Shown: positions 11,612-57,479 of the stretch, one piece after another
Numbering within the stretch: the stretch's first letter is position 1
How the letters are laid out: each line of letters starts with the position of its first letter
Assembly: GCA_963704655.1 (NCBI GenBank)
Contig: OY969927.1
Coordinates: 672,001-736,000, forward strand
DNA from: an uncultured Candidatus Babeliaceae bacterium
Lineage (GTDB): Bacteria > Babelota > Babeliae > Babelales > Babelaceae
Direction of reading: 5' to 3'
DNA length: 64,000 nt
Translations under genes and position numbers: made by a program
The notes under the pieces: model-generated
What the model saw: the letters and a program-made list of their open reading frames with translations, nothing else
The model's database searches: none
What the model was told of the DNA's origin: nothing

Positions 11612-14600
11612 TTATTGTTGTGGGTTTATTTGTGATAATGCAGGCGCATTCGGAGCTGCAGGATCAACATCAATTCCAACGGCACCAATCGTCAAAGAAT
11701 TACTAGGATTTACATAGGTACCATTTAACCCTTGAATATTTCCAGCAAGTTGTCTTTGTATAGTATTTATGCCGCCTATATTATATACAAAGCCAATTGT
11801 TGACTCACCAAGTGCATTTTTGAAAATAGTTGCAATTTTAGTCTCTTGCGTATTGAATTCGCTCATAGTTAGATAATTAAATAATGCAATACCAGTACCA
11901 TTAGCTATAGGCGTCAATGCCTGTTTTGGGGTATCTTCAAGCGCAGCTTTTGATGCCATAATTCCCGCAGTAACACCTGGGACTGTTACACCAGCGACAT
12001 TCAGGACAATCGGGTTTACCACATTAGTGCCGGTAACAGATGCATCAAGCAATACCATGTTGCCACCGCCCAGAACATCTGCATTAACTGGATCATAGTT
12101 AAAAGTATAACCAGAACCAACACCTGTGTTAATTGGTGCAATTGCAAAAAGACCTGCAAGATTGTTATCACCAGAATAGGTTTGATTATTCTGGAAGGTG
12201 CCTTCAGGGATACTCAATGTGATAGAATTAACATTATATAATCCACCAATAGTCCAAGTATTTGGAGCCGTAGTCGCTGCAGTGCCTGAATTAGGTTTAT
12301 TTACTATCCCAGCGCCAAAGCCTAAAAATCCTTGACTATTAAGATCGAGCAACGCGCCAACGCCGGTAAGAATCAACGTAAAGTCGATTGATGGATTTGC
12401 TTCATTCTGGAACACGTTACCAATCTGGAATGCTCCGCCATATTCAGCAGTTGAACCGATTGAAAATTGTGCATTGTCTGTTAATGCCCACGATTGATTG
12501 GTATACGCGCTATAGTAATTAGTGTACCCATTTCCAACGCTTTCAATACCAACCATCGCCCCACGCGGGATATTAAATTGTGCATTTTCTTTGAAGGTCA
12601 CACGACCAGAACCGATAAAGCTTACACGGGTACCATCAGTTGCTTCGACTGTTGTACCAGTTGTAAGAAGGTTTACTGATGTATCCGGCTCACAGTAACA
12701 TTGTGAGTCGCCTTCAAAAATCAAGGTGCCACCACCAAGAAGCACTTGTGCGCCCGGTTCAAGAACCATGTTCACTTGCCCAGAGATAACGAGTACTTGC
12801 ATCGTTGAAGTAAACTGCGTTAAATCCAAGACACCGTCTGACTTAATACGCAACTCAGTTGGAACCACAGAGTCAATCAAGAGTCTGTTACCAACTACAG
12901 GCGTTGCACCAAATAGCGTACCCGTAACAATATGACAGTAGTTATTAATAAGTGTATTCACATTAAGGCGAACAGTTGCATCACCATTTGGTAACAATGT
13001 AAGACCGTTAATGCCAAGTACTACCGAAGCATTAAGAGAATCTTGATTTCTTGATGCGGTGCCAAGGCCAACAAGCGCATTATTTTGTAATACCAGAACA
13101 CCCACAGGCGCAGTAGCTGAAGCAGTTCCTGGCAAGAAGACAAACTCACGTACAATGCCGTTATATGTTCCATCTATTAAAAGATGAACTTGATCACCAA
13201 GGCGTGAATTTAAAACTTGCAGTTGTTCAACAGAACCATAAATTGTCGGCAAGCCATTTAAATTTGCTGCAGTTACGGGATATAACGTTGCAGGAACAAA
13301 CGGCACGGTTGTCGGTTCATACGGCACAAAGAGCGCTTGACTATAGGTACTACAATAGTCTTTCATTAAATTTTGCCAATCAATAGTGTAATCAGAATAG
13401 GTAATATACTCTGGAACAATCACTAATTCTGATGGATCATTTAAGTTTAATTGCCATTGTGCTATGCCCACACGTGGATCAAAAAATACTTGGTTACTTG
13501 GTAAATTAACATTACCATTTGATGATTTTGTAACCATCATGCCAAAGTTTGCACGGTATTGGCCAACATCAACAACACCATTATAATCAACAAACATGCC
13601 ACCTTGGCCAGTTGTGCCACTCGTTTCTGGGCTATTTAAATCACCACCTTGTGTTGAGAATGAAAAGAACTCACCATTGATAAAAAATGAAGGTAATGAT
13701 GCTCCACCAAAACTAGCATCTTGCGAACCAATAGAGATATTGCTTGCATGAGCCAAGTAAATAGTATTAACACCTAATTGACCATTGATATTGCCAGAAA
13801 TATTTGGCGTTATTTTGTAGTTGTTATATGAAACGCTCACAATTAAATCTATTACTGGGTTTTCGCCGCTATTTGTTTGAATAACATCAAGCTGACCATT
13901 ACGATTAACAATTGTTACCCAATCCGATGCTTCTGAGCCGACCTCTGTTCCAATAATCAAGCTTCTGCCTGTTCCGTTATCAATACATCTGCCATTGCCA
14001 TAGAAAACAAATTGAGTTGTATTAGCATCAAATGGCAACGTGATATTGCTGTCGTTCACCACTTGTAAACTCAATCCGGTTACTGCAGCGCTGGTGTGTA
14101 AGTCAAAGAATGAATTATAAAATTGAATTGCAGGGACCACTAACGAATTTGCACATGGGCAAAGTGGATTAGTTGGTAAACAGATATTTAATCTATCTCC
14201 ACCTATATATGATGCAGAAGATTCTCCAGCAACGTTGTCTTCATAAATCGGGTGAATCTCATCAGTATGCTGCAAATGCATTTGGCTCAATTGCATTTTG
14301 TTATTGATAAAGAAGCAGCCACTGCCATACTGTAAATAATTACCGTTTGCATCTTGCGCAAAAGTACGCAATGGGAATGTTGTATCAGTTTGGTTAATTA
14401 ATACTGAACCGCCTGTTGGAGCAACCTGCCATGAAAGTATCTGGAATGCTGTTGCAAGAGTAACATCATCTGGCGTCGAATTACCATTCACTACTAATGG
14501 CCCTTCAACATCAAGCAAGATAGTGCCTTCATTTGAAAAGTTATTTGCAGGGTTAATGGTGAATGAGATGGTACTGTCTGCACCAAACTCACATGAATTC

Positions 14601-15826
14601 CCTTGACAGTCTACGCCGGATCTGAAATAAATCGCCGAATTACCATACATATTAATTTGTGCTGGATCTGAATTATCCGGATTGCCATCAATAATCATAG
14701 CAGCTGGGTTACGGTCTTTAATTATCCGATTAGTGAAGCGCTGACACGGCACATTAAGAACATCGTTAGGGATGCTTGGTGTTAACGTTACGTTTGTTAT
14801 GGTAACAACATAATCGATATACGTTCCAGCATTAACAGTTAAATTAGAACCTGCACCTAAGACAAAACCTTTTTTAATCACCGTTGTTGACGTTGGAGCC
14901 AATTCACAAAATGGATTAGCCGTTAAACCAGACCATTTTGAATTATTATTAACAATAAGTGTTCCTGCAAAACCGCCCGGCACATTATTTGCAACAAATT
15001 CAATAGTTGGTGAACCATTTGCAGCATTTTCATTAGCAAGATTAAAGGCAATATTTTGCAGTGTTACAGGAAAACCTGTCATCAGTTGAGCAACATCATT
15101 AACTACAGCGCCACCGTTATCAATTTGTAAGATAAAACGGCCTGTGCTTGCTGGATCTATTGAAGCATCAAAGTTAATAGTCCCTGTTTGGCCAAACGCA
15201 TTACCAAGGAAACTGATTGCAGAATTATAACCCACTTCAACAGTAGCGTTTTCTGTTAATGTTGATGTAGCGGGTTGGAAATTAACGGTTGGGCTGCCAC
15301 CTACCATATCAACCAAGAATATAACCCCGCTATTTGCGGTACTTGATGCAACCATGCTTGTTTGACTACATGTTGACCCTGATGCATTTAACGTATTTGC
15401 CAATGCAAAACTTAATGTCTCACCACCAGAAATATTAAAATTCAATGTCCCGCCACCACTTACTGTTATTAAAAAATTTTGCCCATAACTTCCGCTAAAA
15501 AGTAAATCATAAGCCACGTATACATCTGTTACACTATCTGTAGAGACATAGAAATAAAGCTCCTGACTTGAAGAAACAATAGCATCAGCGCTCATGGTAA
15601 CATTAGCTGGAGTCGGACTACCAGTATTATTAATAATGCTTATAGGCGTTAACAAGTAGTTAATTCCCGCTATATCTAAGCCACTAGATGGAGTAATATT
15701 TACATTTCCAGACTGATTACCACCATGCCAATTCATTGCCTCAATATGCACCTGTGTGCACGTAAGCAGCATAAATGCTGCCAGCATAGCATAATATTTG
15801 AATAACATTTTCTCTATCATACTCAT
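11612..15826 (-). CDS. Giant (1404 aa) secreted N/T/G/S-rich beta-helix/adhesin-like protein
   Basis: Signal peptide; beta-strand-like, low-Lys composition; 16 bp upstream of the barrel gene. Confidence 0.6.
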   Translation of the reverse strand: MSMIEKMLFKYYAMLAAFMLLTCTQVHIEAMNWHGGNQSGNVNITPSSGLDIAGINYLLTPISIINNTGSPTPANVTMSADAIVSSSQELYFYVSTDSVTDVYVAYDLLFSGSYGQNFLITVSGGGTLNFNISGGETLSFALANTLNASGSTCSQTSMVASSTANSGVIFLVDMVGGSPTVNFQPATSTLTENATVEVGYNSAISFLGNAFGQTGTINFDASIDPASTGRFILQIDNGGAVVNDVAQLMTGFPVTLQNIAFNLANENAANGSPTIEFVANNVPGGFAGTLIVNNNSKWSGLTANPFCELAPTSTTVIKKGFVLGAGSNLTVNAGTYIDYVVTITNVTLTPSIPNDVLNVPCQRFTNRIIKDRNPAAMIIDGNPDNSDPAQINMYGNSAIYFRSGVDCQGNSCEFGADSTISFTINPANNFSNEGTILLDVEGPLVVNGNSTPDDVTLATAFQILSWQVAPTGGSVLINQTDTTFPLRTFAQDANGNYLQYGSGCFFINNKMQLSQMHLQHTDEIHPIYEDNVAGESSASYIGGDRLNICLPTNPLCPCANSLVVPAIQFYNSFFDLHTSAAVTGLSLQVVNDSNITLPFDANTTQFVFYGNGRCIDNGTGRSLIIGTEVGSEASDWVTIVNRNGQLDVIQTNSGENPVIDLIVSVSYNNYKITPNISGNINGQLGVNTIYLAHASNISIGSQDASFGGASLPSFFINGEFFSFSTQGGDLNSPETSGTTGQGGMFVDYNGVVDVGQYRANFGMMVTKSSNGNVNLPSNQVFFDPRVGIAQWQLNLNDPSELVIVPEYITYSDYTIDWQNLMKDYCSTYSQALFVPYEPTTVPFVPATLYPVTAANLNGLPTIYGSVEQLQVLNSRLGDQVHLLIDGTYNGIVREFVFLPGTASATAPVGVLVLQNNALVGLGTASRNQDSLNASVVLGINGLTLLPNGDATVRLNVNTLINNYCHIVTGTLFGATPVVGNRLLIDSVVPTELRIKSDGVLDLTQFTSTMQVLVISGQVNMVLEPGAQVLLGGGTLIFEGDSQCYCEPDTSVNLLTTGTTVEATDGTRVSFIGSGRVTFKENAQFNIPRGAMVGIESVGNGYTNYYSAYTNQSWALTDNAQFSIGSTAEYGGAFQIGNVFQNEANPSIDFTLILTGVGALLDLNSQGFLGFGAGIVNKPNSGTAATTAPNTWTIGGLYNVNSITLSIPEGTFQNNQTYSGDNNLAGLFAIAPINTGVGSGYTFNYDPVNADVLGGGNMVLLDASVTGTNVVNPIVLNVAGVTVPGVTAGIMASKAALEDTPKQALTPIANGTGIALFNYLTMSEFNTQETKIATIFKNALGESTIGFVYNIGGINTIQRQLAGNIQGLNGTYVNPSNSLTIGAVGIDVDPAAPNAPALSQINPQQ

Positions 15827-19765: not shown

Positions 19766-20478
19766 GAACGTTTAGCCTTGCGTCGAGCAAAATACATCGG
19801 TACCACAATATCTGATAGTGTACAAGGAATTACCACGGCAACCAATAAAAAGATAAGTAATATCCCCATCATATTGTGCCAATAGGTAAAACCGTAAGAA
19901 ACCATGTAAAAAAGCGCCGCAAGTGAACTGATGAGAATATGAATAAAATGAGATGCTAATGAGATAAAGCCTAAACTGCTTTCACCATGAGATCTTATCA
20001 TCCAACCATTTAATAACCCAACAAACATAAAAGGCAAGAGATTAATTAAATCGGGAAGATTCGTAAAACAGACGTGCACCGGCATACTTACGCCAAGCAA
20101 ATTCCCAGCCAGCGCTGGCAGGGCAACGTCAGAAAGCGTACAAAAGATTGCCGGAGCTATAAGAGAAACTAAAATGCCCCCAATAACGTTCTTTGAAAAA
20201 CGAAAGAACATAATGCAGGTGCCCGTAACAGCAAAAATTAAGTGCAAATAATGGAATGAATGAAACAAGATATGATACGACTGTGCCAATTCACGACTAT
20301 TATGATAACCAGTGCCGGTCAAAAGATGCAATAAACTTAAAACGGTAAAACCCAGCGCAAGCGAAAAAGCAGCGTAGGGAAAATGGCACATTAATTCTTG
20401 ACGCAATGAGCCGATATGGCCATCATGCGTGTGTTTTGAATGATCGTGATGCCCGCTATGATCATGTAAATTGCTCAT
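19762..20478 (-). CDS. Multi-pass membrane protein with His-rich N-terminus
   Basis: HDHSGHHDHSKHTHDGH followed by about 6 TM helices; stop overlaps the potA start. Confidence 0.7.
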   Translation of the reverse strand: MSNLHDHSGHHDHSKHTHDGHIGSLRQELMCHFPYAAFSLALGFTVLSLLHLLTGTGYHNSRELAQSYHILFHSFHYLHLIFAVTGTCIMFFRFSKNVIGGILVSLIAPAIFCTLSDVALPALAGNLLGVSMPVHVCFTNLPDLINLLPFMFVGLLNGWMIRSHGESSLGFISLASHFIHILISSLAALFYMVSYGFTYWHNMMGILLIFLLVAVVIPCTLSDIVVPMYFARRKAKRS

Positions 20479-20701
20479 ACGTATCCTTTTATTGATGCGC
20501 AAAGGCGCATTTTTTTTAAATTAAAAAAAGAGATTTCATGTAGGGTTTAATTATACGCCAAGATAATCCAAATTGCAAAATACACCCCTAAATTTAGTCA
20601 ATTAATAATTTTACAATATTTTAACAACCCTATCTTAATGAGCTAAAAATATTATAACATAATAGTAAATATTTTTAATACTGGTAATAAGAAAGGGACC
20701 T

Positions 20702-22240
20702 ATGAACACCGTTCAAAGATACAGCTTTATATTTTTGTTAATAGTAATAGTACCGCAAAGAGTAGATGCTTTTCAACAGTCTATGGCCGCCTTACGCAGA
20801 AGTACTCAACAAATATCACCCACTTTACGCAGAAGCACCCAGCAAGTAGCCCCATATATCAGTAAACGTTATTTAACCTCGGCACAAGCAGCAACCATTT
20901 TGGGGGTTCAATCTGGAGCTACCCCACAAGAAATCAAATCGGCTTACCATAAACAGGCTAAACACTGGCATCCAGATTATGCTACTCGAAGAGGGGTTCC
21001 GGCAACTGAAGCTAATAAAAAAATGAGAGAAATTACAGAAGCATTTGATCAACTAAAAAAACAACCAATTTGGCAAAGTGCATATCAATCGAATCAATCA
21101 TCTTACGAGCAACAAGAGCAAACTTATGAACAGAAAGAGGAGCCTAAAAAAGAAAACCCTTCAATGAGCCCAGAACAAGAAAAACAATACGACGAGCTCT
21201 TTAAAGAAGGTTTCAGGTTTGTTAAATCAAAGTTTGCTGACTCTGGCACCCTTTTTACTGATAGCCGCTTTAGTGACAATGAACCAGTCCCACTTTCAAA
21301 TCGCTTAAAATATCTTCAAGAACGCTCGTGGGATGAAAAATCTATATATAGAAACGAAAATTTTTTAGCTTTAGCAGACACCATCGATACGTTTGGAGAA
21401 GCCACCACCTTAGCAGCATTGTTACAACCGGATTTCAAGGGAAACATCTTTGATATTCTAACAGCTCTTATGAATGGCTTAGAACGATATGATAATTACG
21501 TGAAAAAATTTGGAACTAAGACAATTTCAGAAAAAGATCTTAAAAAATTCGCTAAAGTTAAAAATTTTTTAACATACCTGCCTAATGAATATAAAACAGC
21601 TTTATCCCTTTTAAAAATTACGCATGGCCAAAAAGATGCTGTATCGCATGATAAATTTAAACCATTCTTAAACACTATAAAACAGTTTAGCCCTGCAGAA
21701 CTTTCTACATTTTCAAAAAAGTTTGGGCCTCTTGTTATAAATAACGCTAAGCTTTCAGGACTCTTTAATACGTTCTTAAAAGATTTTTTTATTAATATAG
21801 CCAGAGATTTTGAAAATTATTCCCAAGAAGAGACAGAAGTATTTTTGAAGCTTTTTTCAAACTTTTCTTATTCAGTTCAATTGCCTTTATTGGCAAAATG
21901 CACGTATTGGAATTTAAAAGACCCAAAAGAACAGCACGCAGAACGCTACCTTAAGCTTCTTAATACTATTTTAGAATCGCATCAAGACTTACCAACTCAG
22001 GAAGATGTTCTTTTGAAAAAGGAACGTGGTGAACCATTTTTAGATACCATTGGTAGCTACCTAAACCACAGCGAGCATTATAAAAGATTTTTACAGAGTG
22101 GCATGCTTCAAAAAGCTGCTTTTATAATCGATGAAAGCCACCCAGACCAATACCCTAAGCTTACAGAACTTATTTATTACCTTCTAAAAATTCCTAATAA
22201 AACGATCCACCAACAGCTAAGAACCGCTATTTTTGGATAA
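20702..22240 (+). CDS. Secreted J-domain (DnaJ class C) protein
   Basis: Signal peptide (..RVDA); AATILGV..EIKSAYHKQAKHWHPD..EITEAFDQL. Confidence 0.85.
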   Translation: MNTVQRYSFIFLLIVIVPQRVDAFQQSMAALRRSTQQISPTLRRSTQQVAPYISKRYLTSAQAATILGVQSGATPQEIKSAYHKQAKHWHPDYATRRGVPATEANKKMREITEAFDQLKKQPIWQSAYQSNQSSYEQQEQTYEQKEEPKKENPSMSPEQEKQYDELFKEGFRFVKSKFADSGTLFTDSRFSDNEPVPLSNRLKYLQERSWDEKSIYRNENFLALADTIDTFGEATTLAALLQPDFKGNIFDILTALMNGLERYDNYVKKFGTKTISEKDLKKFAKVKNFLTYLPNEYKTALSLLKITHGQKDAVSHDKFKPFLNTIKQFSPAELSTFSKKFGPLVINNAKLSGLFNTFLKDFFINIARDFENYSQEETEVFLKLFSNFSYSVQLPLLAKCTYWNLKDPKEQHAERYLKLLNTILESHQDLPTQEDVLLKKERGEPFLDTIGSYLNHSEHYKRFLQSGMLQKAAFIIDESHPDQYPKLTELIYYLLKIPNKTIHQQLRTAIFG

Positions 22241-22281
22241 CCTATAATATCGATTAATTTTTATCTTGATAAAGTAATTTT

Positions 22282-22309
22282 AGGGGCCCTTATTTGGGGC
22301 CCCTTTTTT
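22282..22309 (+). terminator. Intrinsic terminator
   Basis: aggggccc-ttatttg-gggcccc followed by T-tract. Confidence 0.8.
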
Positions 22310-22446
22310 GAAAACTCACCAATCATATCACCCTGATAAATACTTCAATTTGAAATTAAAGCCATTGACTTTCGAGCCAGCGCCATTTTATAATAAAAAT
22401 AAAGAATGCATTTATCTCAAAATTTATTTGTAAAAGAAGGATCATT

Positions 22447-23790
22447 ATGAACACTTATACTAAAAGTGCCTTATTTATAACACTTTTGAGCACAATTTCA
22501 ATGCTTGAATGTATGACGGCAAGAAGCGCACAAGGCTTAAGTGCTATTCGTCAAGGGGTTGCTGGAACAGCCAGAACATCAATAGTTGGAACGGCGCGAG
22601 GATCAGGTTTACGCTCAGCAAGCCAAGCAGCTAAACAACAAACGTCTTTTTTCCAACGTGGATATTCTCAAATGTCGCGCGAAGAAGCGGCAAATATATT
22701 TCGCTTACCTAAAAATGCAACCGCTGAAGAGATAACCGCTAAATATAGACAGTTAGCAAAAGAATACCACCCTGACATAAATCCAACAGGGGCAAAAAAT
22801 ATGCAAAACATAAATCTTGCACGCGAGACATTATTAAAGAAGACGGGGGAAGCCACTGTTCAAGAAGCATCTGCAGCAAAAGCAGCACAAGAACAAGCCA
22901 GCCAGGCCTCTGAATACTTTAAAAACATATCTGAAATTTATAAAGATAGTTTAAACAAAGGCTTAGAGAGCCTCAAAAATTCTTTGAAGGAAGCTGAACA
23001 AAAATTTGATAAAACACTAAATGATCTTAAAAAAGCTGGCAAAGAATATAACTTCCAGGCTTTATACGATGAGTACATATCCAAAAACGCTTTTTTGGCA
23101 CGTGAAAATGCTCAAAAGATGGTGCAAAATGCCCAAAAAGTTGCAGAATCAATAGGTGAAAACCTCTCAAAAAAATTCAAGACTTTAAACCTTGATCAAT
23201 ACCCCGAATATAAAACATTGTATCAAAAAACAATGCAAGAAATCAAAAATGATCAAGCTAAAACTGTCAAATTCATTGAAAGTTCCATGGCGTTATCCAA
23301 TCAATCTTTACATTCCGCTAAAATGGCTACTGCAGAATCTTATCACTTATGCTATCAAAAAATACGCGAGCAGCTTTATTCAGTCTACTTTAAAGATATA
23401 GTTTATGTTCTAGAAAACGATCTTAAAGCACTCACAAAAGGTGAAAAAATTCGCATTCTAGAAAAATTTAATAAGGAATTCGATTACGCATCAGAATTAT
23501 TCGCTAGCATGAATGTAACTCCAGAAGTATTTGCAAAAAGTCTTGATAAGTTAATAACTTCGATGCAACGTATTACTGGAGAAGTTATTACTGATGCTGC
23601 AGGAAGTGCGAGCAGAACGGCTCAAAAACTTCAATATTCACAGTTTATGAGCCGACTAGGCGCAGGTCTTGGCGCTGCAGCTGTCGGTGCATATTTTTGG
23701 CCTAAATCAGAAACTAAACCAGAACAAAAAGAAGTAGCGGCTAAACCACCTGTTGAAACATCTCAAGTATCCCAGGCGCCAGCAAAATAG
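22447..23790 (+). CDS. Secreted J-domain protein with coiled coil and C-terminal TM segment
   Basis: Signal peptide; MSREEAANIF..YRQLAKEYHPD..INLARETL; LGAGLGAAAVGAYFW. Confidence 0.85.
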   Translation: MNTYTKSALFITLLSTISMLECMTARSAQGLSAIRQGVAGTARTSIVGTARGSGLRSASQAAKQQTSFFQRGYSQMSREEAANIFRLPKNATAEEITAKYRQLAKEYHPDINPTGAKNMQNINLARETLLKKTGEATVQEASAAKAAQEQASQASEYFKNISEIYKDSLNKGLESLKNSLKEAEQKFDKTLNDLKKAGKEYNFQALYDEYISKNAFLARENAQKMVQNAQKVAESIGENLSKKFKTLNLDQYPEYKTLYQKTMQEIKNDQAKTVKFIESSMALSNQSLHSAKMATAESYHLCYQKIREQLYSVYFKDIVYVLENDLKALTKGEKIRILEKFNKEFDYASELFASMNVTPEVFAKSLDKLITSMQRITGEVITDAAGSASRTAQKLQYSQFMSRLGAGLGAAAVGAYFWPKSETKPEQKEVAAKPPVETSQVSQAPAK

Positions 23791-23799
23791 AGTAAAAAT

Positions 23800-23822
23800 A
23801 GGGGCTCCAACTGGAGCCCTTT
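23800..23822. terminator. Bidirectional terminator
   Basis: gggctcca-ac-tggagccc inverted repeat with A/T flanks. Confidence 0.75.
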
Positions 23823-23826
23823 CTGT

Positions 23827-23861
23827 TTAAAACGCATTGCCCAGTGTCAAAAAACATGCAT
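23827..23861 (-). repeat. Remnant copy of the tamA 3' end
   Basis: 30/35 nt identical to 24520-24554; reads ACFLTLGNAF* vs AWFLTLGNAF*. Confidence 0.9.
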
Positions 23862-23877
23862 GCATATGATATATTGC

Positions 23878-24216
23878 TTATAAAAGTTTGTTACAAACCT
23901 GACGAAATATTTTTTTAAAAGCCACTTGATCTATTTCACCTAGCTGCCCGATTTTTTTATGTATTAAACGATTATCAAGCGTAAAGAGCTTCATACGAAT
24001 TAATGAAGCAGAAGGTAAATTTGTGGATACTAAATCTGCAATAACATGATCATGCGCTCTTTGCTGATGAAGAGCAGAACTTATCATTACCAAAATAACT
24101 GAGCCGTCTCTATTAAATTCAGCATCAGATAAGACCAAAGCTGGCCGTATTTTTGTTTGCAGAGAATCGACAAAGGGGAAAGGGACAATAACAATATCAA
24201 AGCTTTTGTAGATCAC
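23878..24216 (-). CDS. PemK/MazF-family toxin
   Basis: FDIVIVPFPFVD...KIRPALVLS; probable GTG start overlapping the antitoxin. Confidence 0.9.
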   Translation of the reverse strand: MIYKSFDIVIVPFPFVDSLQTKIRPALVLSDAEFNRDGSVILVMISSALHQQRAHDHVIADLVSTNLPSASLIRMKLFTLDNRLIHKKIGQLGEIDQVAFKKIFRQVCNKLL

Positions 24217-24430
24217 GGTATGCCTTTTCATCTTCTTCTGAATCCCATTCAGATAACGTCTGTGCAACGGCTTTTAAATAAGTTTTATCAAGTGAATCTA
24301 TTTTTTTCAAAACAACCACACCTTCAATTATTTCAAAAATCACAGAATCACCGATTTTTAATTTCAATTGTTTACGTATTTCAGCTGGAATAGTTGTCTG
24401 GAATTTACTCGTAACCTTAACTATTTTCAT
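24197..24430 (-). CDS. AbrB/MazE/SpoVT-family antitoxin
   Basis: KVTSKFQTTIPAEIRKQL..GD; acidic tail EWDSEEDEKAY. Confidence 0.9.
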   Translation of the reverse strand: MKIVKVTSKFQTTIPAEIRKQLKLKIGDSVIFEIIEGVVVLKKIDSLDKTYLKAVAQTLSEWDSEEDEKAYRDLQKL

Positions 24431-24519
24431 AAGAGAGCCCTTCTGGTAAAATTCTTACGATTCTTACCAATAAGAATACCATAGGCTTACTTTCAAAACA
24501 ATATTAAACTCTATAAATT

Positions 24520-27168
24520 TTAAAACGCATTACCTAATGTCAAAAACCACGCATACGAAGCTTGGTCATAGTAAGATTGGTTGCCGGGGAATTTTTTCCA
24601 TTTCCACCCAATATCAAAGCGCAATGGCCCAACAGGGGTGTTCCAGCGTAAGCCAAAGCCAGAGGCACCAATAATATCTTTTGCATGAATATCGGTAATG
24701 GCACTTTGCGTAAGAAGCCCAATATCAGTAAACAATGTTCCACCAAGTGATCTAAAAATCGTAAAACGCAACTCAAAGTTGCCATTCATCATAGTTTTGC
24801 CACCTGTGGGAACAACAATAACTTCTTGATTGCAATTAGTGTAAAAGTTTAATGGTGGAGCAAGATCCGGTTCATAACCACGCAACGAATAAGCACCGCC
24901 TAAATAAAATCGCTCTGGTGGCATTATGGCAGAAAATTGCTGATACACAATTGTCCCCAAGCGTAAACGTATTGCTAACACGGTATGCGATGGCTTGTGC
25001 AGCGGAATATAACTTCCCTGCTCTAATAAAAATTTTATAAAAGCAGCATCGCGAACTCCTAAAGGAGCAAATGCTTTTGATGAAAGAACTAAGTACCAGC
25101 CTGCAAGTGGGTCAAGGCGATTATCAACATCACTGACATATACTGACGGCTCACAAAAAAAGTAGGGAATTCGTTTATCAACAAAGCGTGTAGTAAAATC
25201 TATTGCCTGTGAAAGCGTTTTTGAAATATCAGAAATCTGCATCCAATCAATACCGCTTGTTAATCCCCACTGGAAACCAAAAATATCTTGCGATAAACCC
25301 CATAAAAAACCATCTTGTGCGTAACGGTATAATATTTCACGTGAACCGATAACAACTGGCTGATCATAACGGTTACTATAAAGTTTAAATTGCTGTTTTA
25401 TCGGCAGGTTACCTAAAAATGCTAATTGATACATAAGCATGGCATACCGTAAAAAACGTGTAATATCAAACTGCACAGAAAAAATATCTGCTGCTTTGCG
25501 TGGATTTTTCCATAAAAATGTTCCACCAAATTTATATGTTGCACCGCCGCGCCAGGTGAAGTTGGTACCAACACCTTGAAAACCTGCACGCGCACGCACT
25601 TCAAATGGGTCACTATCTTGTAGCTGAATATGGACTATCTTTTCATCTTCTTTTGTAGCGATGTTTTCTGGAAATACCGTTACCTGATCAAAAACACCAA
25701 AATTGCGTATCATTGCCGCTGTTTCATCTAACTTTTTTTTATTCCACGTATCACCCTTTTTATACTTTACCGCTCGTTCTATAATAGTATTTGACACGAT
25801 ACAAGAACCTTTAATATGTGTAGCACCAAAAGCAACTTTTTTGTTATCAGAAAAATGCCATTCTAAAACATGCTCGCCATCGTGCATAACAAATTGGGGT
25901 ATTACATGGGTGTACAAATACCCTTTTTCATGCAACTGTTTTTGTAAAAACTTTCGCATGCGCCCAATAAGAGTGCTATCTACAATTAACGGTATCTTTT
26001 GTTGTAACGTAACGTGTTGCTGTTGATAATAGGGTGCATGTTTTTTACACCAACTTTGACGATAGAGTAATGTTAAGAGCCCTTCAAAATCTTCGCCTAT
26101 AATTTTTGTTACAGTCAGTTGCTCGCCAAGATCAACGGTAACAGCAAGTTCATAGTTCCCCGATGGTAACTTATGCATCTGTGTGTCATGAATTTTAACT
26201 TTCCAATATCCCTGCTGAACAAGATATAATGTAAATGCTGATACCGCTTGCAATATTTTTTTATGATCATAACGCGTTGAAACAAGTCCCTTAAAGAATG
26301 CGCTGCGTTGAATTAAACAATCGTCAACGCCATGAACACTTACACGCTCAATTAAAGCTTGTGAACCTTCTTTAATAGAAAATAAAAGATTTAATGGTTC
26401 ATCGTAATACTCAATTTCGACATCTAAATAACCCTGTTTATGATAACGATCACGAAGCTCCTGAGCAAGTAACTCGGGTGGAATTATAGGTAGCGCTTTA
26501 CCAAACTCTGCACATGTCTGATACAACTGTTGCGCAGTAAAAAAAGAATTTCCAACAAATGTAAACCTTTTTTTATCATGCAATGAACAGTTAAATTGAA
26601 TATCAACAAGGGAATTTTCATCATGTCTTAATTGTTCCATTTCAATAGATGCAAAGAGATACCCCTTTTTTGCAAAGTAAGCAGATATCATTCGTGCCTG
26701 AGCATCAAGCAAATCCTGTGCACAGTATGCATTTTTTAGACGCGATTCAAGACGCTGATGTAATTTTTTAAAAATCTCTTCAACGCCATCTTTTTGCACG
26801 ATTTCATTTCGCAATTGACAGGTAACTGAACGTATCGTAAATAGTGGCCCTGATTTAATCGAAAGGTGCACATGCGCGGTATGGCGAGTTTGATCAAAAT
26901 TAATACGTGATTCTACATGGGCAGTAAGATACCCAAGTCGCTTAAGATACTTTTCAATTGCGCGTATACCATCTTCATGCTCTGCCTGTTTAAATGGTAC
27001 GCCTTTTGAAAGTCGATAAAGTTTTTTATAGAGGTCTTTGCCGGTAAAAATACCGGAAATTGAAATTTTACGTATAGTATATTCGGGTAAATTTTCAGCA
27101 GCTAAGTTTATACTGCTTGTGCACAGGTACAAAATTATATGCATGATCAAAAGATGTACGCGTTTCAT
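24520..27168 (-). CDS. Omp85-family (TamA/BamA-like) outer membrane protein with POTRA domains
   Basis: ERFYLGGAYSLRGY, GFGLRWNTPVGPLRFD, C-terminal GNAF; several POTRA GY motifs. Confidence 0.92.
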   Translation of the reverse strand: MKRVHLLIMHIILYLCTSSINLAAENLPEYTIRKISISGIFTGKDLYKKLYRLSKGVPFKQAEHEDGIRAIEKYLKRLGYLTAHVESRINFDQTRHTAHVHLSIKSGPLFTIRSVTCQLRNEIVQKDGVEEIFKKLHQRLESRLKNAYCAQDLLDAQARMISAYFAKKGYLFASIEMEQLRHDENSLVDIQFNCSLHDKKRFTFVGNSFFTAQQLYQTCAEFGKALPIIPPELLAQELRDRYHKQGYLDVEIEYYDEPLNLLFSIKEGSQALIERVSVHGVDDCLIQRSAFFKGLVSTRYDHKKILQAVSAFTLYLVQQGYWKVKIHDTQMHKLPSGNYELAVTVDLGEQLTVTKIIGEDFEGLLTLLYRQSWCKKHAPYYQQQHVTLQQKIPLIVDSTLIGRMRKFLQKQLHEKGYLYTHVIPQFVMHDGEHVLEWHFSDNKKVAFGATHIKGSCIVSNTIIERAVKYKKGDTWNKKKLDETAAMIRNFGVFDQVTVFPENIATKEDEKIVHIQLQDSDPFEVRARAGFQGVGTNFTWRGGATYKFGGTFLWKNPRKAADIFSVQFDITRFLRYAMLMYQLAFLGNLPIKQQFKLYSNRYDQPVVIGSREILYRYAQDGFLWGLSQDIFGFQWGLTSGIDWMQISDISKTLSQAIDFTTRFVDKRIPYFFCEPSVYVSDVDNRLDPLAGWYLVLSSKAFAPLGVRDAAFIKFLLEQGSYIPLHKPSHTVLAIRLRLGTIVYQQFSAIMPPERFYLGGAYSLRGYEPDLAPPLNFYTNCNQEVIVVPTGGKTMMNGNFELRFTIFRSLGGTLFTDIGLLTQSAITDIHAKDIIGASGFGLRWNTPVGPLRFDIGWKWKKFPGNQSYYDQASYAWFLTLGNAF

Positions 27169-57057: not shown

Positions 57058-57080
57058 TTCAAATAAAGTTTTTTAATAGT

Positions 57081-57479
57081 GATTAAGGTGACCAATAAGC
57101 CAGATTCTGTTACACCCAATTTCTTGGGCATATGGCAACCATTTCTCTGAGCGATACACCCGCATAATAATTCTACTACGCTCTTTCGAGCTTCGAAGAA
57201 CAGGCCGGAACGAATACCGTATATGCTGCTTGATCTTGCTCCAGGTAGGGTTTGCCGCCCTCAGCTAGTCACCTAACTGAGCCGTGCGCTCTTACCGCAC
57301 ATTTTCACCCTTACAAGCGCCTAAGCGCGAGCGGTCTTGTCTCTGTGGCACTTTCCATGATTTACATCTTCTGCAGCTTTTCAACCGTAGATACCATCTT
57401 CGTTTGGAGTCTGGACTTTCCTCATTACGCCATAGCTCAATGAGCGACGGCAAACGCGATTGCCTAGGCTACCTTAACC
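57081..57479 (-). ncRNA. rnpB: RNase P RNA
   Basis: Minus strand GAGGAAAGUCC, GGAAAGUGCCACAGA, GGCAAACCC..GGAGCAAG, ACAGAAUCUGGCUUA; P1 GGUUAAGGU pairs with ACCUUAAUC; upstream TATAAT. Confidence 0.96.

Follow-up and report, generated by a model that had tools for sequence, protein, structure and literature searches.

Two adjoining genes, here called P1 and P2, lie in a 64,000-nucleotide stretch of DNA (the window) from the reduced genome of a Dependentiae bacterium, and both encode a protein with an export-like N-terminus, a basic leader and a J-domain. We consider it an even bet that these are J-domain effectors exported through Sec and acting on the Hsp70 of the host. This is the best reading of the data since signal-peptide-like starts are the rule for the non-canonical J-proteins of these organisms, and no exported Hsp70 accompanies them.

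Both frames are intact and furnished with expression signals of their own (Table 1). A start at an internal Met of P1 or P2 was considered and discarded, because Shine-Dalgarno-like sites are absent before the internal Met codons and present before the first ATGs. The source genome, at 1.30 Mb (1,298,077 bp, 38% GC, versus 1,174,272 bp and 33.7% GC in Chromulinavorax), is not Chromulinavorax. In this Dependentiae (Babeliales) protist parasite, P1 and P2 belong to the strain-specific accessory genes. Together with a mazEF pair they make up a stretch of ~4 kb that is missing at the same site in all five relatives compared, three of them of the same genus; there bamA adjoins the gene for a 246-aa membrane protein across a gap of ~100–950 bp, which in this genome measures 4 kb. 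The mazF/mazE genes, flanked by direct-repeat copies of the bamA 3' end, share this strain-specific stretch with P1 and P2 and have no functional link to them. Identical short contigs with P1, P2 and mazEF were present in four metagenome runs from three studies. One contig of run X2 contained a joint bypassing 20274–24602, which was set aside as too weak, its shorter side being 26 letters with a likeness of 88.

Table 1. Features of the P1/P2 locus, in window coordinates.
Feature	Position	Strand	Remarks
Shine-Dalgarno-like site, purine-rich AGAAAGGGA, before P1 ATG	20690..20698	+	read from sequence
P1 gene, 512 aa	20702..22240	+	intact ORF
P1 residues 1–23, signal-peptide-like	20702..20770	+	heuristic; VDA ahead of possible cut
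P1 residues 24–57, acid-free basic Arg/Ser/Ala/Thr-rich leader	20771..20872	+	34 residues; 5 R, 1 K, 0 D/E
33-nt tandem duplication (76% identity), giving two 11-residue LRRSTQQ units in P1 leader	20787..20852	+	repeat family D2
P1 J-domain, Pfam match residues 66–120	20897..21061	+	PF00226, E 6.2e-12, 45.9 bits
P1 C-terminal part, ~387 aa, predicted all-helical, no known family	21077..22237	+	no Pfam family; low-confidence model
Terminator-like hairpin and T run after P1	22282..22304	+	9 pairs, 7 GC
Promoter-like TTGACT-18-TATAAT before P2	22365..22394	+	11 of 12; consensus match only
Shine-Dalgarno-like GAAGGA, 5 nt upstream of P2 start codon	22436..22441	+	read from sequence
P2 gene, 447 aa	22447..23790	+	intact ORF
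P2 residues 1–22, signal-peptide-like, weaker than that of P1	22447..22512	+	heuristic; several cut sites possible
P2 residues 23–73, acid-free Ala/Ser/Thr/Gly/Arg-rich leader	22513..22665	+	51 residues; 6 R, 1 K, 0 D/E
P2 J-domain, Pfam match residues 84–132	22696..22842	+	PF00226, E 5.4e-10, 39.7 bits
P2 residues 404–418, Gly/Ala-rich, moderately hydrophobic segment LGAGLGAAAVGAYFW	23656..23700	+	KD 1.32 over 15 residues, 1.01 over 19
Terminator-like hairpin after P2	23800..23821	+	
mazF/mazE pair (23878–24267, 24197–24430)	23826..24554	-	Pfam PemK_toxin, MazE_antitoxin
36-nt direct repeat flanking mazF/mazE, copy of bamA 3' end	23826–23861 and 24519–24554		repeat family D1

All calls of signal-peptide-like segments rest on a home-made heuristic and inspection by eye. 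On this basis the architecture described in the initial annotation, a signal-peptide-like start followed by an Arg/Ser/Ala/Thr-rich leader free of acidic residues, is real in both proteins. P1 opens with MNTVQR, in which R6 is the positive residue of the n-region, followed by the ten-residue core SFIFLLIVIV and PQRVDA; the core has a mean Kyte-Doolittle (KD) value of 3.43 over 10 residues and 1.33 over 19. P2 opens with MNTYTK, with K6 in its n-region, then ALFITLLSTI, at KD 2.28 over 10 residues and 1.52 over 19. Because these cores are short and remain below KD 1.6 over 19 residues, a signal peptide fits better than a membrane helix in either protein. P1 shows no Tat signal peptide, its RR pairs falling after the core with no hydrophobic stretch beyond them, and no lipobox, there being no Cys in its signal region; P2 has no lipobox, since Glu stands at -1 directly before the Cys (M-L-E-C).

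The leaders that follow are unusual for this proteome, in which 10.4% of residues are Asp or Glu; at a given fixed position, 53 or more residues in a row without either would have p ~0.003. Acidic residues in P1 occur at 22 and 77, with none in residues 23–76, and in P2 at 21 and 79, with 57 acid-free residues between them. Over 45 post-signal residues the net charge is +6 in P1 and +5 in P2, near the top of the 385 signal-peptide-like proteins without further membrane segments (mean -0.84, sd 3.5). In single-sequence AF2 models both leaders stay below pLDDT 50.

The J-domains themselves are as first annotated, with intact HPD motifs (P1 residues 90–92, nt 20969–20977; P2 residues 108–110, nt 22768–22776), retained helix II basic residues and PF00226 scores above the gathering cut-off of 27.8 bits; that of P1 is modelled by AF2 at pLDDT 70–83. 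By sequence likeness they are ordinary bacterial types, 38–52% identical to the J-domains of the relatives' own DnaJ, and their best solved-structure relatives are DNAJB8/B6, DNAJC5 and bacterial DnaJ. A resemblance to Pam18/Tim14/DNAJC19 had been proposed and did not hold up: Tim14 (2guz) is not among the PDB matches of P1 or P2 at E ≤ 0.01, and among the matches of a relative's J-domain it comes no higher than about rank 31, after DNAJB and DnaJ types. Neither protein is a canonical DnaJ (TIGR02349, 47 and 33 bits versus a cut-off of 377, the alignment being limited to the J-domain).

P1 residues 1–92 and P2 residues 1–110 are 30% identical (E 3e-6) and beyond these no alignment was obtained, which suggests a homologous N-terminal cassette of signal peptide, leader and J-domain fused to two unrelated, predicted helical C-terminal parts. 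Searches of 5.8 billion proteins with P1 residues 125–512 and P2 residues 135–447 returned only the queries themselves (proteins of 281–896 and 245–783 aa covered, respectively). Matches to P1 and P2 across 201 genomes of the phylum, and in PHROGs, were confined to the J-domain; PADLOC gave no match to either, the ESM Atlas no usable match, and a scan of genome contigs with P1 found nothing. As both proteins are ORFans, conservation supports no function for them. Mean pLDDT of the single-sequence AF2 models is 51.0 for P1 and 46.9 for P2. When P1 residues 24–130 were compared with 1.84 billion representatives, nearly all of the 939 matches at E ≤ 0.001 lay at query positions ~36–100, the J-domain part, and with matches so confined there is no sign that leader and J-domain were inherited together from a eukaryotic precursor. 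The C-terminal transmembrane segment claimed for P2 exists as a hydrophobic segment, LGAGLGAAAVGAYFW, but of moderate hydrophobicity only, and we treat it as a weak membrane-segment candidate; its flank is more positive on the N-side, so if it did form a membrane helix the P2 J-domain would be cytoplasmic.

Export is favoured by the company these proteins keep. In this genome every PF00226 match besides DnaJ, six of six with five above the cut-off, has a signal-peptide-like start, against a heuristic background of 36% (451 of 1248 ORFs). The association extends through the phylum: 24 other Dependentiae genomes gave 21 non-canonical J matches, and once a 54-aa fragment was dropped 14 of the remaining 20 had such a start (binomial p 0.002 versus the 36% background, with kin not independent). 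Signal-peptide-bearing J-proteins are a recurring theme in the Dependentiae. The genome encodes DnaK and one further Hsp70-like protein, the latter without a signal peptide, and no exported Hsp70 was found in it. An exported J-protein with no exported Hsp70 points to the Hsp70 of the host. The precursor would pass through Sec, with probable cleavage by the genome's one signal peptidase I; the mature protein would then leave the bacterial cell, which encodes two secretins, and once in the host its J-domain would stimulate the ATPase of an Hsp70 there, the leader and/or the C-terminal part determining where. Several findings weigh against export. The signal-like segment of P2 is weak and could be cut at several sites, the first part of the mature protein is basic in both (+2 within 18 residues), a property known to hamper Sec export in E. 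coli, and 6 of the 20 non-canonical J ORFs of the relatives have no signal-peptide-like start. For Chromulinavorax, of the same phylum, the published account gives signal sequences for 44% of CDS and suggests that the apparatus for manipulating the host is extensive.

The initial annotation took the leaders further, as mitochondrial or other organelle presequences that signal peptidase would expose, leading to import through TOM/TIM23, an MPP cut before the J-domain and the driving of mtHsp70. We think this unlikely. In its favour, the leaders at 34 and 51 residues fit the 15–55 residues of mitochondrial presequences, they are net positive with five to six Arg and no acidic residue, both proteins have a Met after the predicted signal peptide, and in both, read by eye, R-x-Y closes the leader. 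The Arg of this supposed MPP site, however, precedes the J-domain (RLMSR, IRMSR) also in relatives that have no such leader, their J-domain lying far from the N-terminus behind a long acidic stretch, so the motif may be structural. A presequence would also be expected to form an amphipathic helix. The 18-residue hydrophobic moment of the P1 leader, 0.62 versus 0.39 ± 0.11 in 2000 shuffles, is reached by a fraction of 0.022–0.031 of them, suggesting modest helical amphipathicity; that of the Gly-rich P2 leader, 0.57 versus 0.42 ± 0.09, is reached by 0.068 with its best periodicity at 180 degrees, which would be marginal, and AF2 gives no confident helix in either. A proteome scan of the kind that had been suggested did find about eight further signal-peptide-like proteins with an Arg-rich, acid-poor stretch immediately after the signal, and in one other genome protein L019 (genome G110) shows the same order of signal peptide, Met, 40-residue acid-free basic leader and J-domain. 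That genome is the only other one in which a leader directly ahead of a J-domain was seen, and none of the 20 non-canonical J ORFs in the unbiased sample of 24 genomes has one. Chromulinavorax is described as reshaping the mitochondrion of its host, which favours a mitochondrial address, but the J-domains are bacterial-type rather than Tim14-like, a plastid transit peptide matches the leader composition about equally, and DjlA-like proteins elsewhere carry similar basic stretches before their J-domains. The broader idea, that in some Dependentiae effectors removal of the Sec signal unmasks a host organelle presequence, with P1, P2 and the G110 protein bringing their J-domains into the host's mitochondria so as to commandeer mtHsp70 and the other Arg-rich-leader proteins following the same route, strikes us as quite improbable. 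Such a two-step address would match, in a bacterium, the bipartite leaders known from complex plastids.

If instead the N-terminal segment were an uncleaved N-out anchor, the leader would be cytoplasmic by the positive-inside rule and the J-domain would recruit the bacterium's own DnaK to the inner membrane, much as DjlA-like co-chaperones do; we find this unlikely, yet a rival to be taken seriously. In its favour, no Hsp70 other than DnaK is certain to be accessible, and the charge beyond the hydrophobic segment is strongly positive. A DjlA-type similarity, which had been claimed, stands as a partial match of P1 (positions 168–264 of the 267 in PRK09430 against residues 24–122, E 6e-10) and as an HPD-x5-RG-[VI]-P insertion that, in the representative search, P1 has in common with the TerB-plus-J protein P0147 and others; P0039, P0012 and P0108 moreover have basic linkers ahead of C-terminal J-domains. 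It fails as family membership, with 39.1 bits for P1 and 16.1 for P2 against the DjlA cut-off of 162 (NF006948/PRK09430), an N-terminal J-domain and no TerB part. Further against an anchor, the cores lack the length needed for a stable helix, the n-regions contain K/R as signal peptides do, the first 8–12 residues past the core are neutral or acidic with the V-D-A site among them in P1, and in the genome's other J-proteins acidic residues come after a classical signal peptide. The G110 protein has KKARKRK behind a strong C-terminal membrane helix, and with an N-terminal anchor this basic stretch would face outward, contrary to the positive-inside rule. The J-domain might also work in cis, recruiting DnaK to keep a large export substrate unfolded for Sec, or serve some Hsp70-free periplasmic role. 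DnaK is encoded, and signal-peptide-like starts go with J-domains at either end of many unrelated proteins, yet most of the 385 signal-peptide-like proteins have no J-domain, the intact HPD implies ATP-dependent Hsp70 action, and we know of no precedent; we hold this to be very unlikely. Finally, the genes could be recent, rapidly evolving ORFs that do little or nothing, products of cassette duplication and low-complexity expansion. Their lack of relatives outside the J-domain, their absence at the same site in the three same-genus genomes, the tandem duplication inside the P1 leader and the low structure confidence would all agree with this, but long intact frames with Shine-Dalgarno-like sites, a promoter-like site and terminators, a conserved HPD with helix II basic residues, and identical sequence in four metagenome runs make it highly improbable.

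Comparison with known systems helps to place putative exported J-domain effectors of this kind. DjlA, an inner-membrane J-protein of E. coli, has an N-terminal hydrophobic segment and linker before its J-domain, and P1 has a similar post-HPD insertion, but in DjlA a TerB-like part comes first and the J-domain closes the protein, whereas ~320–390 residues follow it in P1 and P2. The mitochondrial import motor J-proteins Pam18/Tim14 and DNAJC19 present a hydrophobic N-terminus, a basic stretch and a J-domain in the same order as P1 and P2, which differ by their large extra domains. In Plasmodium falciparum, exported HSP40s combine a signal sequence with a downstream host-targeting element (PEXEL) and work with Hsp70 in the host cell. 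These belong to a eukaryotic parasite, and inspection of P1 and P2 by eye revealed no PEXEL (R-x-L-x-E/Q/D) or RxLR-type motif in the leaders and no classical bipartite NLS. HopI1 of Pseudomonas syringae is delivered by type III secretion and has a C-terminal J-domain. Like P1 and P2 it is a bacterial J-domain protein, one that acts in the host, and unlike them it has neither a Sec signal peptide nor a presequence-like leader. Sequence kinship with P1 and P2 probably stops at the J-domain. It is described at chloroplasts, as a protein that binds host HSP70 and draws it to the organelle (PMC8982422), and exported J-domain proteins of P. falciparum are described in PMC10349383. The EPEC effector Map is reported to have an N-terminal mitochondrial targeting sequence (PMC7492733). 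Map is injected by type III secretion with its presequence at the very N-terminus and has no J-domain, while a presequence in P1 or P2 would need cleavage of the Sec signal to be unmasked.

The Dependentiae, a widespread group of protist parasites, are almost uncultured; to our knowledge no effector delivery system is known for them and very few effectors have been characterised. In our literature search no paper connected Dependentiae to secreted J-proteins, and the main text of the Chromulinavorax paper has no occurrence of 'DnaJ'. Literature naming both Dependentiae and DnaJ concerned, among the matches listed, ribosome biogenesis or deep phylogeny. As judged from their sequences, P1 and P2 are plausible secreted host-manipulating factors, and their delivery into host mitochondria is a possibility. 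If true, a Sec-exported class of J-domain proteins would offer a testable handle on how Dependentiae manipulate their hosts, through takeover of host Hsp70, and would have parallels in the HSP40s that malaria parasites export and in HopI1 of plant pathogens. Should the leader prove to be an organelle presequence exposed by signal cleavage, it would represent a new bacterial way of addressing proteins to mitochondria and could help explain the mitochondrial remodelling seen in Dependentiae.

The two neighbouring J-domain genes of the initial annotation, whose products we call P1 and P2, are both present at exactly the coordinates it had claimed. Their first ATG codons are preceded by Shine-Dalgarno (SD)-like sites, purine-rich in P1 (AGAAAGGGA) and GAAGGA 5 nt upstream in P2, and no such site was seen before the internal Met codons that open the presequence-like part of either protein. 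Since each gene has its own terminator-like hairpin and a promoter-like site (TTGACT-18-TATAAT) lies upstream of P2, they look like two separate transcription units. The Pfam DnaJ domain (PF00226, cut-off 27.8 bits) scores 45.9 bits over residues 66-120 of P1 and 39.7 bits over residues 84-132 of P2, and the expected His-Pro-Asp (HPD) motif is intact in both, at 90-92 and 108-110 respectively.

Features of the P1/P2 region and other genes with Arg-rich leaders (positions in the window or, where so marked, in G000:C1, the single contig of this genome)
Feature	Position	Strand or placement	Remark
P1 gene	20702-22240	same strand as P2	512 aa; ORF list
terminator-like hairpin	22282-22304	3' of P1	
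P2 gene	22447-23790	same strand as P1, adjacent	447 aa; ORF list
terminator-like hairpin	23800-23821	3' of P2	
mazF/mazE pair	23878-24267, 24197-24430	minus	
three tandem paralogues	G000:C1:187705-190087		Arg-rich leader; L048, L049 and L084 for this and the next two entries
one ORF	G000:C1:857492-859135		Arg-rich leader
two ORFs	G000:C1:1145804-1147474		Arg-rich leader
sulfotransferase	G000:C1:946431-947315		Arg-rich leader

P1 opens with MNTVQR, a 10-residue core SFIFLLIVIV (mean Kyte-Doolittle (KD) hydrophobicity 3.43) and PQRVDA, and P2 with MNTYTK and the core ALFITLLSTI (2.28). Over 19 residues the KD means are 1.33 and 1.52, under the usual membrane-helix level of 1.6, so these segments look like signal peptides more than anchors, though in P2 several cut sites are possible. 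Acidic residues are absent between positions 22 and 77 of P1 and between 21 and 79 of P2, with 5 Arg and 1 Lys in residues 24-57 of the former and 6 Arg and 1 Lys in residues 23-73 of the latter. With Asp and Glu at 10.4% of the proteome, the probability of meeting 53 or more consecutive acid-free residues at a given position is about 0.003. Net charge over the 45 residues after the core is +6 in P1 and +5 in P2, compared with a mean of -0.84 (sd 3.5) across the 385 ORFs that have a signal-peptide-like start and no additional membrane segment. The claimed arrangement of a signal-like start and an acid-free basic leader before the J-domain is confirmed. The two LRRSTQQ units in the P1 leader come from a tandemly duplicated 33-nt segment (20787-20852), its copies 76% identical. 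P1 1-92 aligns with P2 1-110 at E 3e-6 and 30% identity, with no alignment further on; the two genes thus combine one common N-terminal cassette with unrelated C-terminal parts. Genome-wide, the three residues just ahead of the first charged position downstream of signal-peptide-like cores are Met at a frequency of 0.042-0.055 vs 0.018, an enrichment of about 2.5-3 times, and several J-proteins have Met immediately after the predicted signal peptide.

The leader had been read as a mitochondrial presequence unmasked by Sec export, with the J-domain acting on host mtHsp70. Composition, together with modest amphipathicity in one of the two proteins, makes such mitochondrial import possible, and we consider it rather improbable. 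The best 18-residue hydrophobic moment of the P1 leader (0.62) exceeds most of 2000 shuffles (0.39 ± 0.11; a fraction of 0.022-0.031 reach it), whereas P2 is marginal (0.57 versus 0.42 ± 0.09, shuffle fraction 0.068) and its best periodicity, 180 degrees, is not helical, which tells against a presequence there; AF2 pLDDT is below 50 in both leaders. The proposed R-x-Y cleavage motif is found in both proteins, but it sits in the pre-J stretch, where relatives have RLMSRQQAATILGV or IRMSRAEAANILGV, and since those relatives have their J-domains 137-291 residues into the protein, behind acidic sequence, the pre-J Arg may be structural. A likeness to Pam18/Tim14 of the mitochondrial import motor did not hold up: the closest solved J-domain relatives are DNAJB8, DNAJB6, DNAJC5 and bacterial DnaJ, Tim14 (2guz) is absent among solved-structure matches at E<=0.01 for P1 and P2 and comes at about rank 31 for a relative's J-domain, and both J-domains are 38-52% identical to those of relatives' canonical DnaJ. 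More favourable to a presequence is the recurrence of the same order (signal peptide, acid-free basic leader, J-domain) in one other genome, G110 (locus L019), whose protein shares 28.6% identity with P1 across 140 residues (E 9e-8) and has a strong C-terminal membrane helix, then KKARKRK; against this, none of the 20 ORFs in an unbiased sample of the phylum has a signal and acid-free basic leader right before the J-domain. The suggested proteome scan for similar proteins did return about eight more signal-peptide-like proteins of this genome, judged from composition, with an Arg-rich, acid-poor stretch directly after the signal, which again favours a presequence; other acid-free Arg-rich stretches in the scan belong, as judged by eye, mostly to ribosomal proteins. 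Organelle targeting after signal cleavage would be one explanation of this position-specific enrichment.

An uncleaved N-out anchor with a cytoplasmic J-domain, resembling the inner-membrane J-protein DjlA, is also unlikely in our estimation. The positive-inside rule leads one to expect a positive stretch after the hydrophobic N-terminus of such a protein, and the strongly positive stretch seen here fits; basic linkers precede J-domains in DjlA-like proteins elsewhere, the insertion after HPD in P1 is common to them, and a weak C-terminal segment of P2, with its more positive N-side flank, slightly favours this topology. The NCBIfam DjlA profile matches P1 24-122 (E 6e-10), but at 39 bits against a cut-off of 162, and the J-domains of P1 and P2 are N-terminal, their hydrophobic cores short and their n-regions furnished with Lys or Arg. 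Moreover the first 8-12 residues past the core are neutral or acidic (V-D-A among them in P1), and the basic tail behind the C-terminal helix of the G110 protein would face outward.

In the three groups of Arg-rich-leader ORFans (see table) Met often stands right after the signal, followed by Arg/Ala/Ser/Thr-rich sequence, several have Gly/Ala-rich hydrophobic segments resembling that of P2, and no convincing Pfam family was found in them above E 0.01.

The genome is one contig of 1,298,077 bp with 38% GC, and the Glu-tRNA synthetase encoded in the window shares 82% identity with Candidatus Babeliaceae MAGs and 46-76% with Dependentiae/TM6 MAGs. Chromulinavorax destructans, with 1,174,272 bp and 33.7% GC, was rejected as this organism on those values. 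Three same-genus and two same-family genomes share the gene order ABC transporter, 246-aa membrane protein, bamA, gltX, and the gap that separates bamA from the membrane-protein gene, about 100-950 bp in those five relatives, is 4 kb here (window 20502-24520) and contains P1, P2 and a mazEF pair. This gap is a variable site, which holds a different 163-aa signal-peptide ORF in one same-genus genome and an unrelated 155-aa ORF in another; it is also seen at L072 2837-3606 and L073 10067-11014. The mazEF pair (region 23826-24554) is flanked by direct repeats of 36 nt (23826-23861 and 24519-24554, 86% identity), the second copy being the 3' end of bamA; this has the look of an insertion with target duplication, distinct from P1/P2. 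Apart from their J-domains, P1 and P2 have no relatives in 201 phylum genomes or the ESM Atlas, and a 5.8-billion-protein collection returned the query alone (lengths 281-896 aa for P1, 245-783 aa for P2). As short contigs from four metagenome runs in three studies match parts of P1, P2 and mazEF identically, the sequence is no assembly artefact, and one of these runs may be the source sample. Elsewhere in the window, no Pfam family matches a 1404-aa ORF (11612-15826, minus strand) at E<=0.001, a bacterial class A RNase P RNA lies at 57080-57476 on the minus strand (187 bits), and the entire 64 kb contains no tRNA gene.

Seven PF00226 matches were found in this genome, canonical DnaJ and six others (five over the cut-off), and all six of the latter have a signal-peptide-like start, the background by our home-made heuristic being 451 of 1248 ORFs (36%); the Chromulinavorax paper puts signal sequences at 44% of CDS. 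By eye, two of the six combine WD40-like repeats with a J-domain at the C-terminus, and a third has ankyrin-like repeats. The WD40-like pair (G000:C1:400500 and 760834; L002, L003) are about 450-500 aa long with a classical signal peptide and PF00226 scores of 61.9 and 56.9 bits. Relatives' loci fetched as best matches to P1/P2, a biased set, gave 38 distinct J ORFs: 25 canonical DnaJ, 2 short ORFs with an N-terminal J-domain and 11 others, which come down to 10 separate proteins, L010 and L037 representing a single locus; each of the 10 has a signal-peptide-like start. For the unbiased sample, a PF00226 search of 24 further genomes with a completeness of 90% or more returned 21 non-canonical matches, of which 20 were examined and one 54-aa contig-end fragment was dropped. 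Fourteen have a signal-peptide-like start, in two it is absent or unclear, and four are J-only ORFs of 90-109 aa directly beside dnaJ in one genus. These last (L086-L089, genomes G006, G015, G021 and G005) are without a signal peptide. Under a binomial model, 14 or more of 20 would arise with a probability of 0.002 at the 36% background and 0.017 at 44%, though kin are non-independent and the calls were by eye.

Besides DnaK, the genome encodes another Hsp70-like protein, 827 aa long and lacking a signal peptide, as well as two secretins, a single signal peptidase I and an actin/MreB-like match. In the gene for this second Hsp70-like protein (G000:C1:842329-844812) Pfam HSP70 covers the nucleotide-binding part only, and the N-terminus of the 605-aa ORF that comes after it (844809-846626; the two genes are in L078 and L083) is J-like by eye (..FNILGLSSSATLKEIRK), with no Pfam J-domain at E<=0.01.

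That P1 and P2 are Sec-exported, strain-specific J-domain effectors is, in our assessment, about an even chance. DjlA is among the nearest known systems, as are the exported HSP40s of Plasmodium and MTS-bearing effectors such as EPEC Map. Another is HopI1, likewise a bacterial J-protein, which is described in PMC8982422 as binding host HSP70 and recruiting it to chloroplasts. Among the papers searched, the main text on Chromulinavorax included, none dealing with secreted J-proteins of Dependentiae was found. The best-supported reading places P1 and P2 within a phylum-wide habit of signal peptides on non-canonical J-proteins. J-domains act as stimulators of the Hsp70 ATPase, and since both Hsp70 and ATP are absent from the periplasm, exported J-domains point most simply to host Hsp70.
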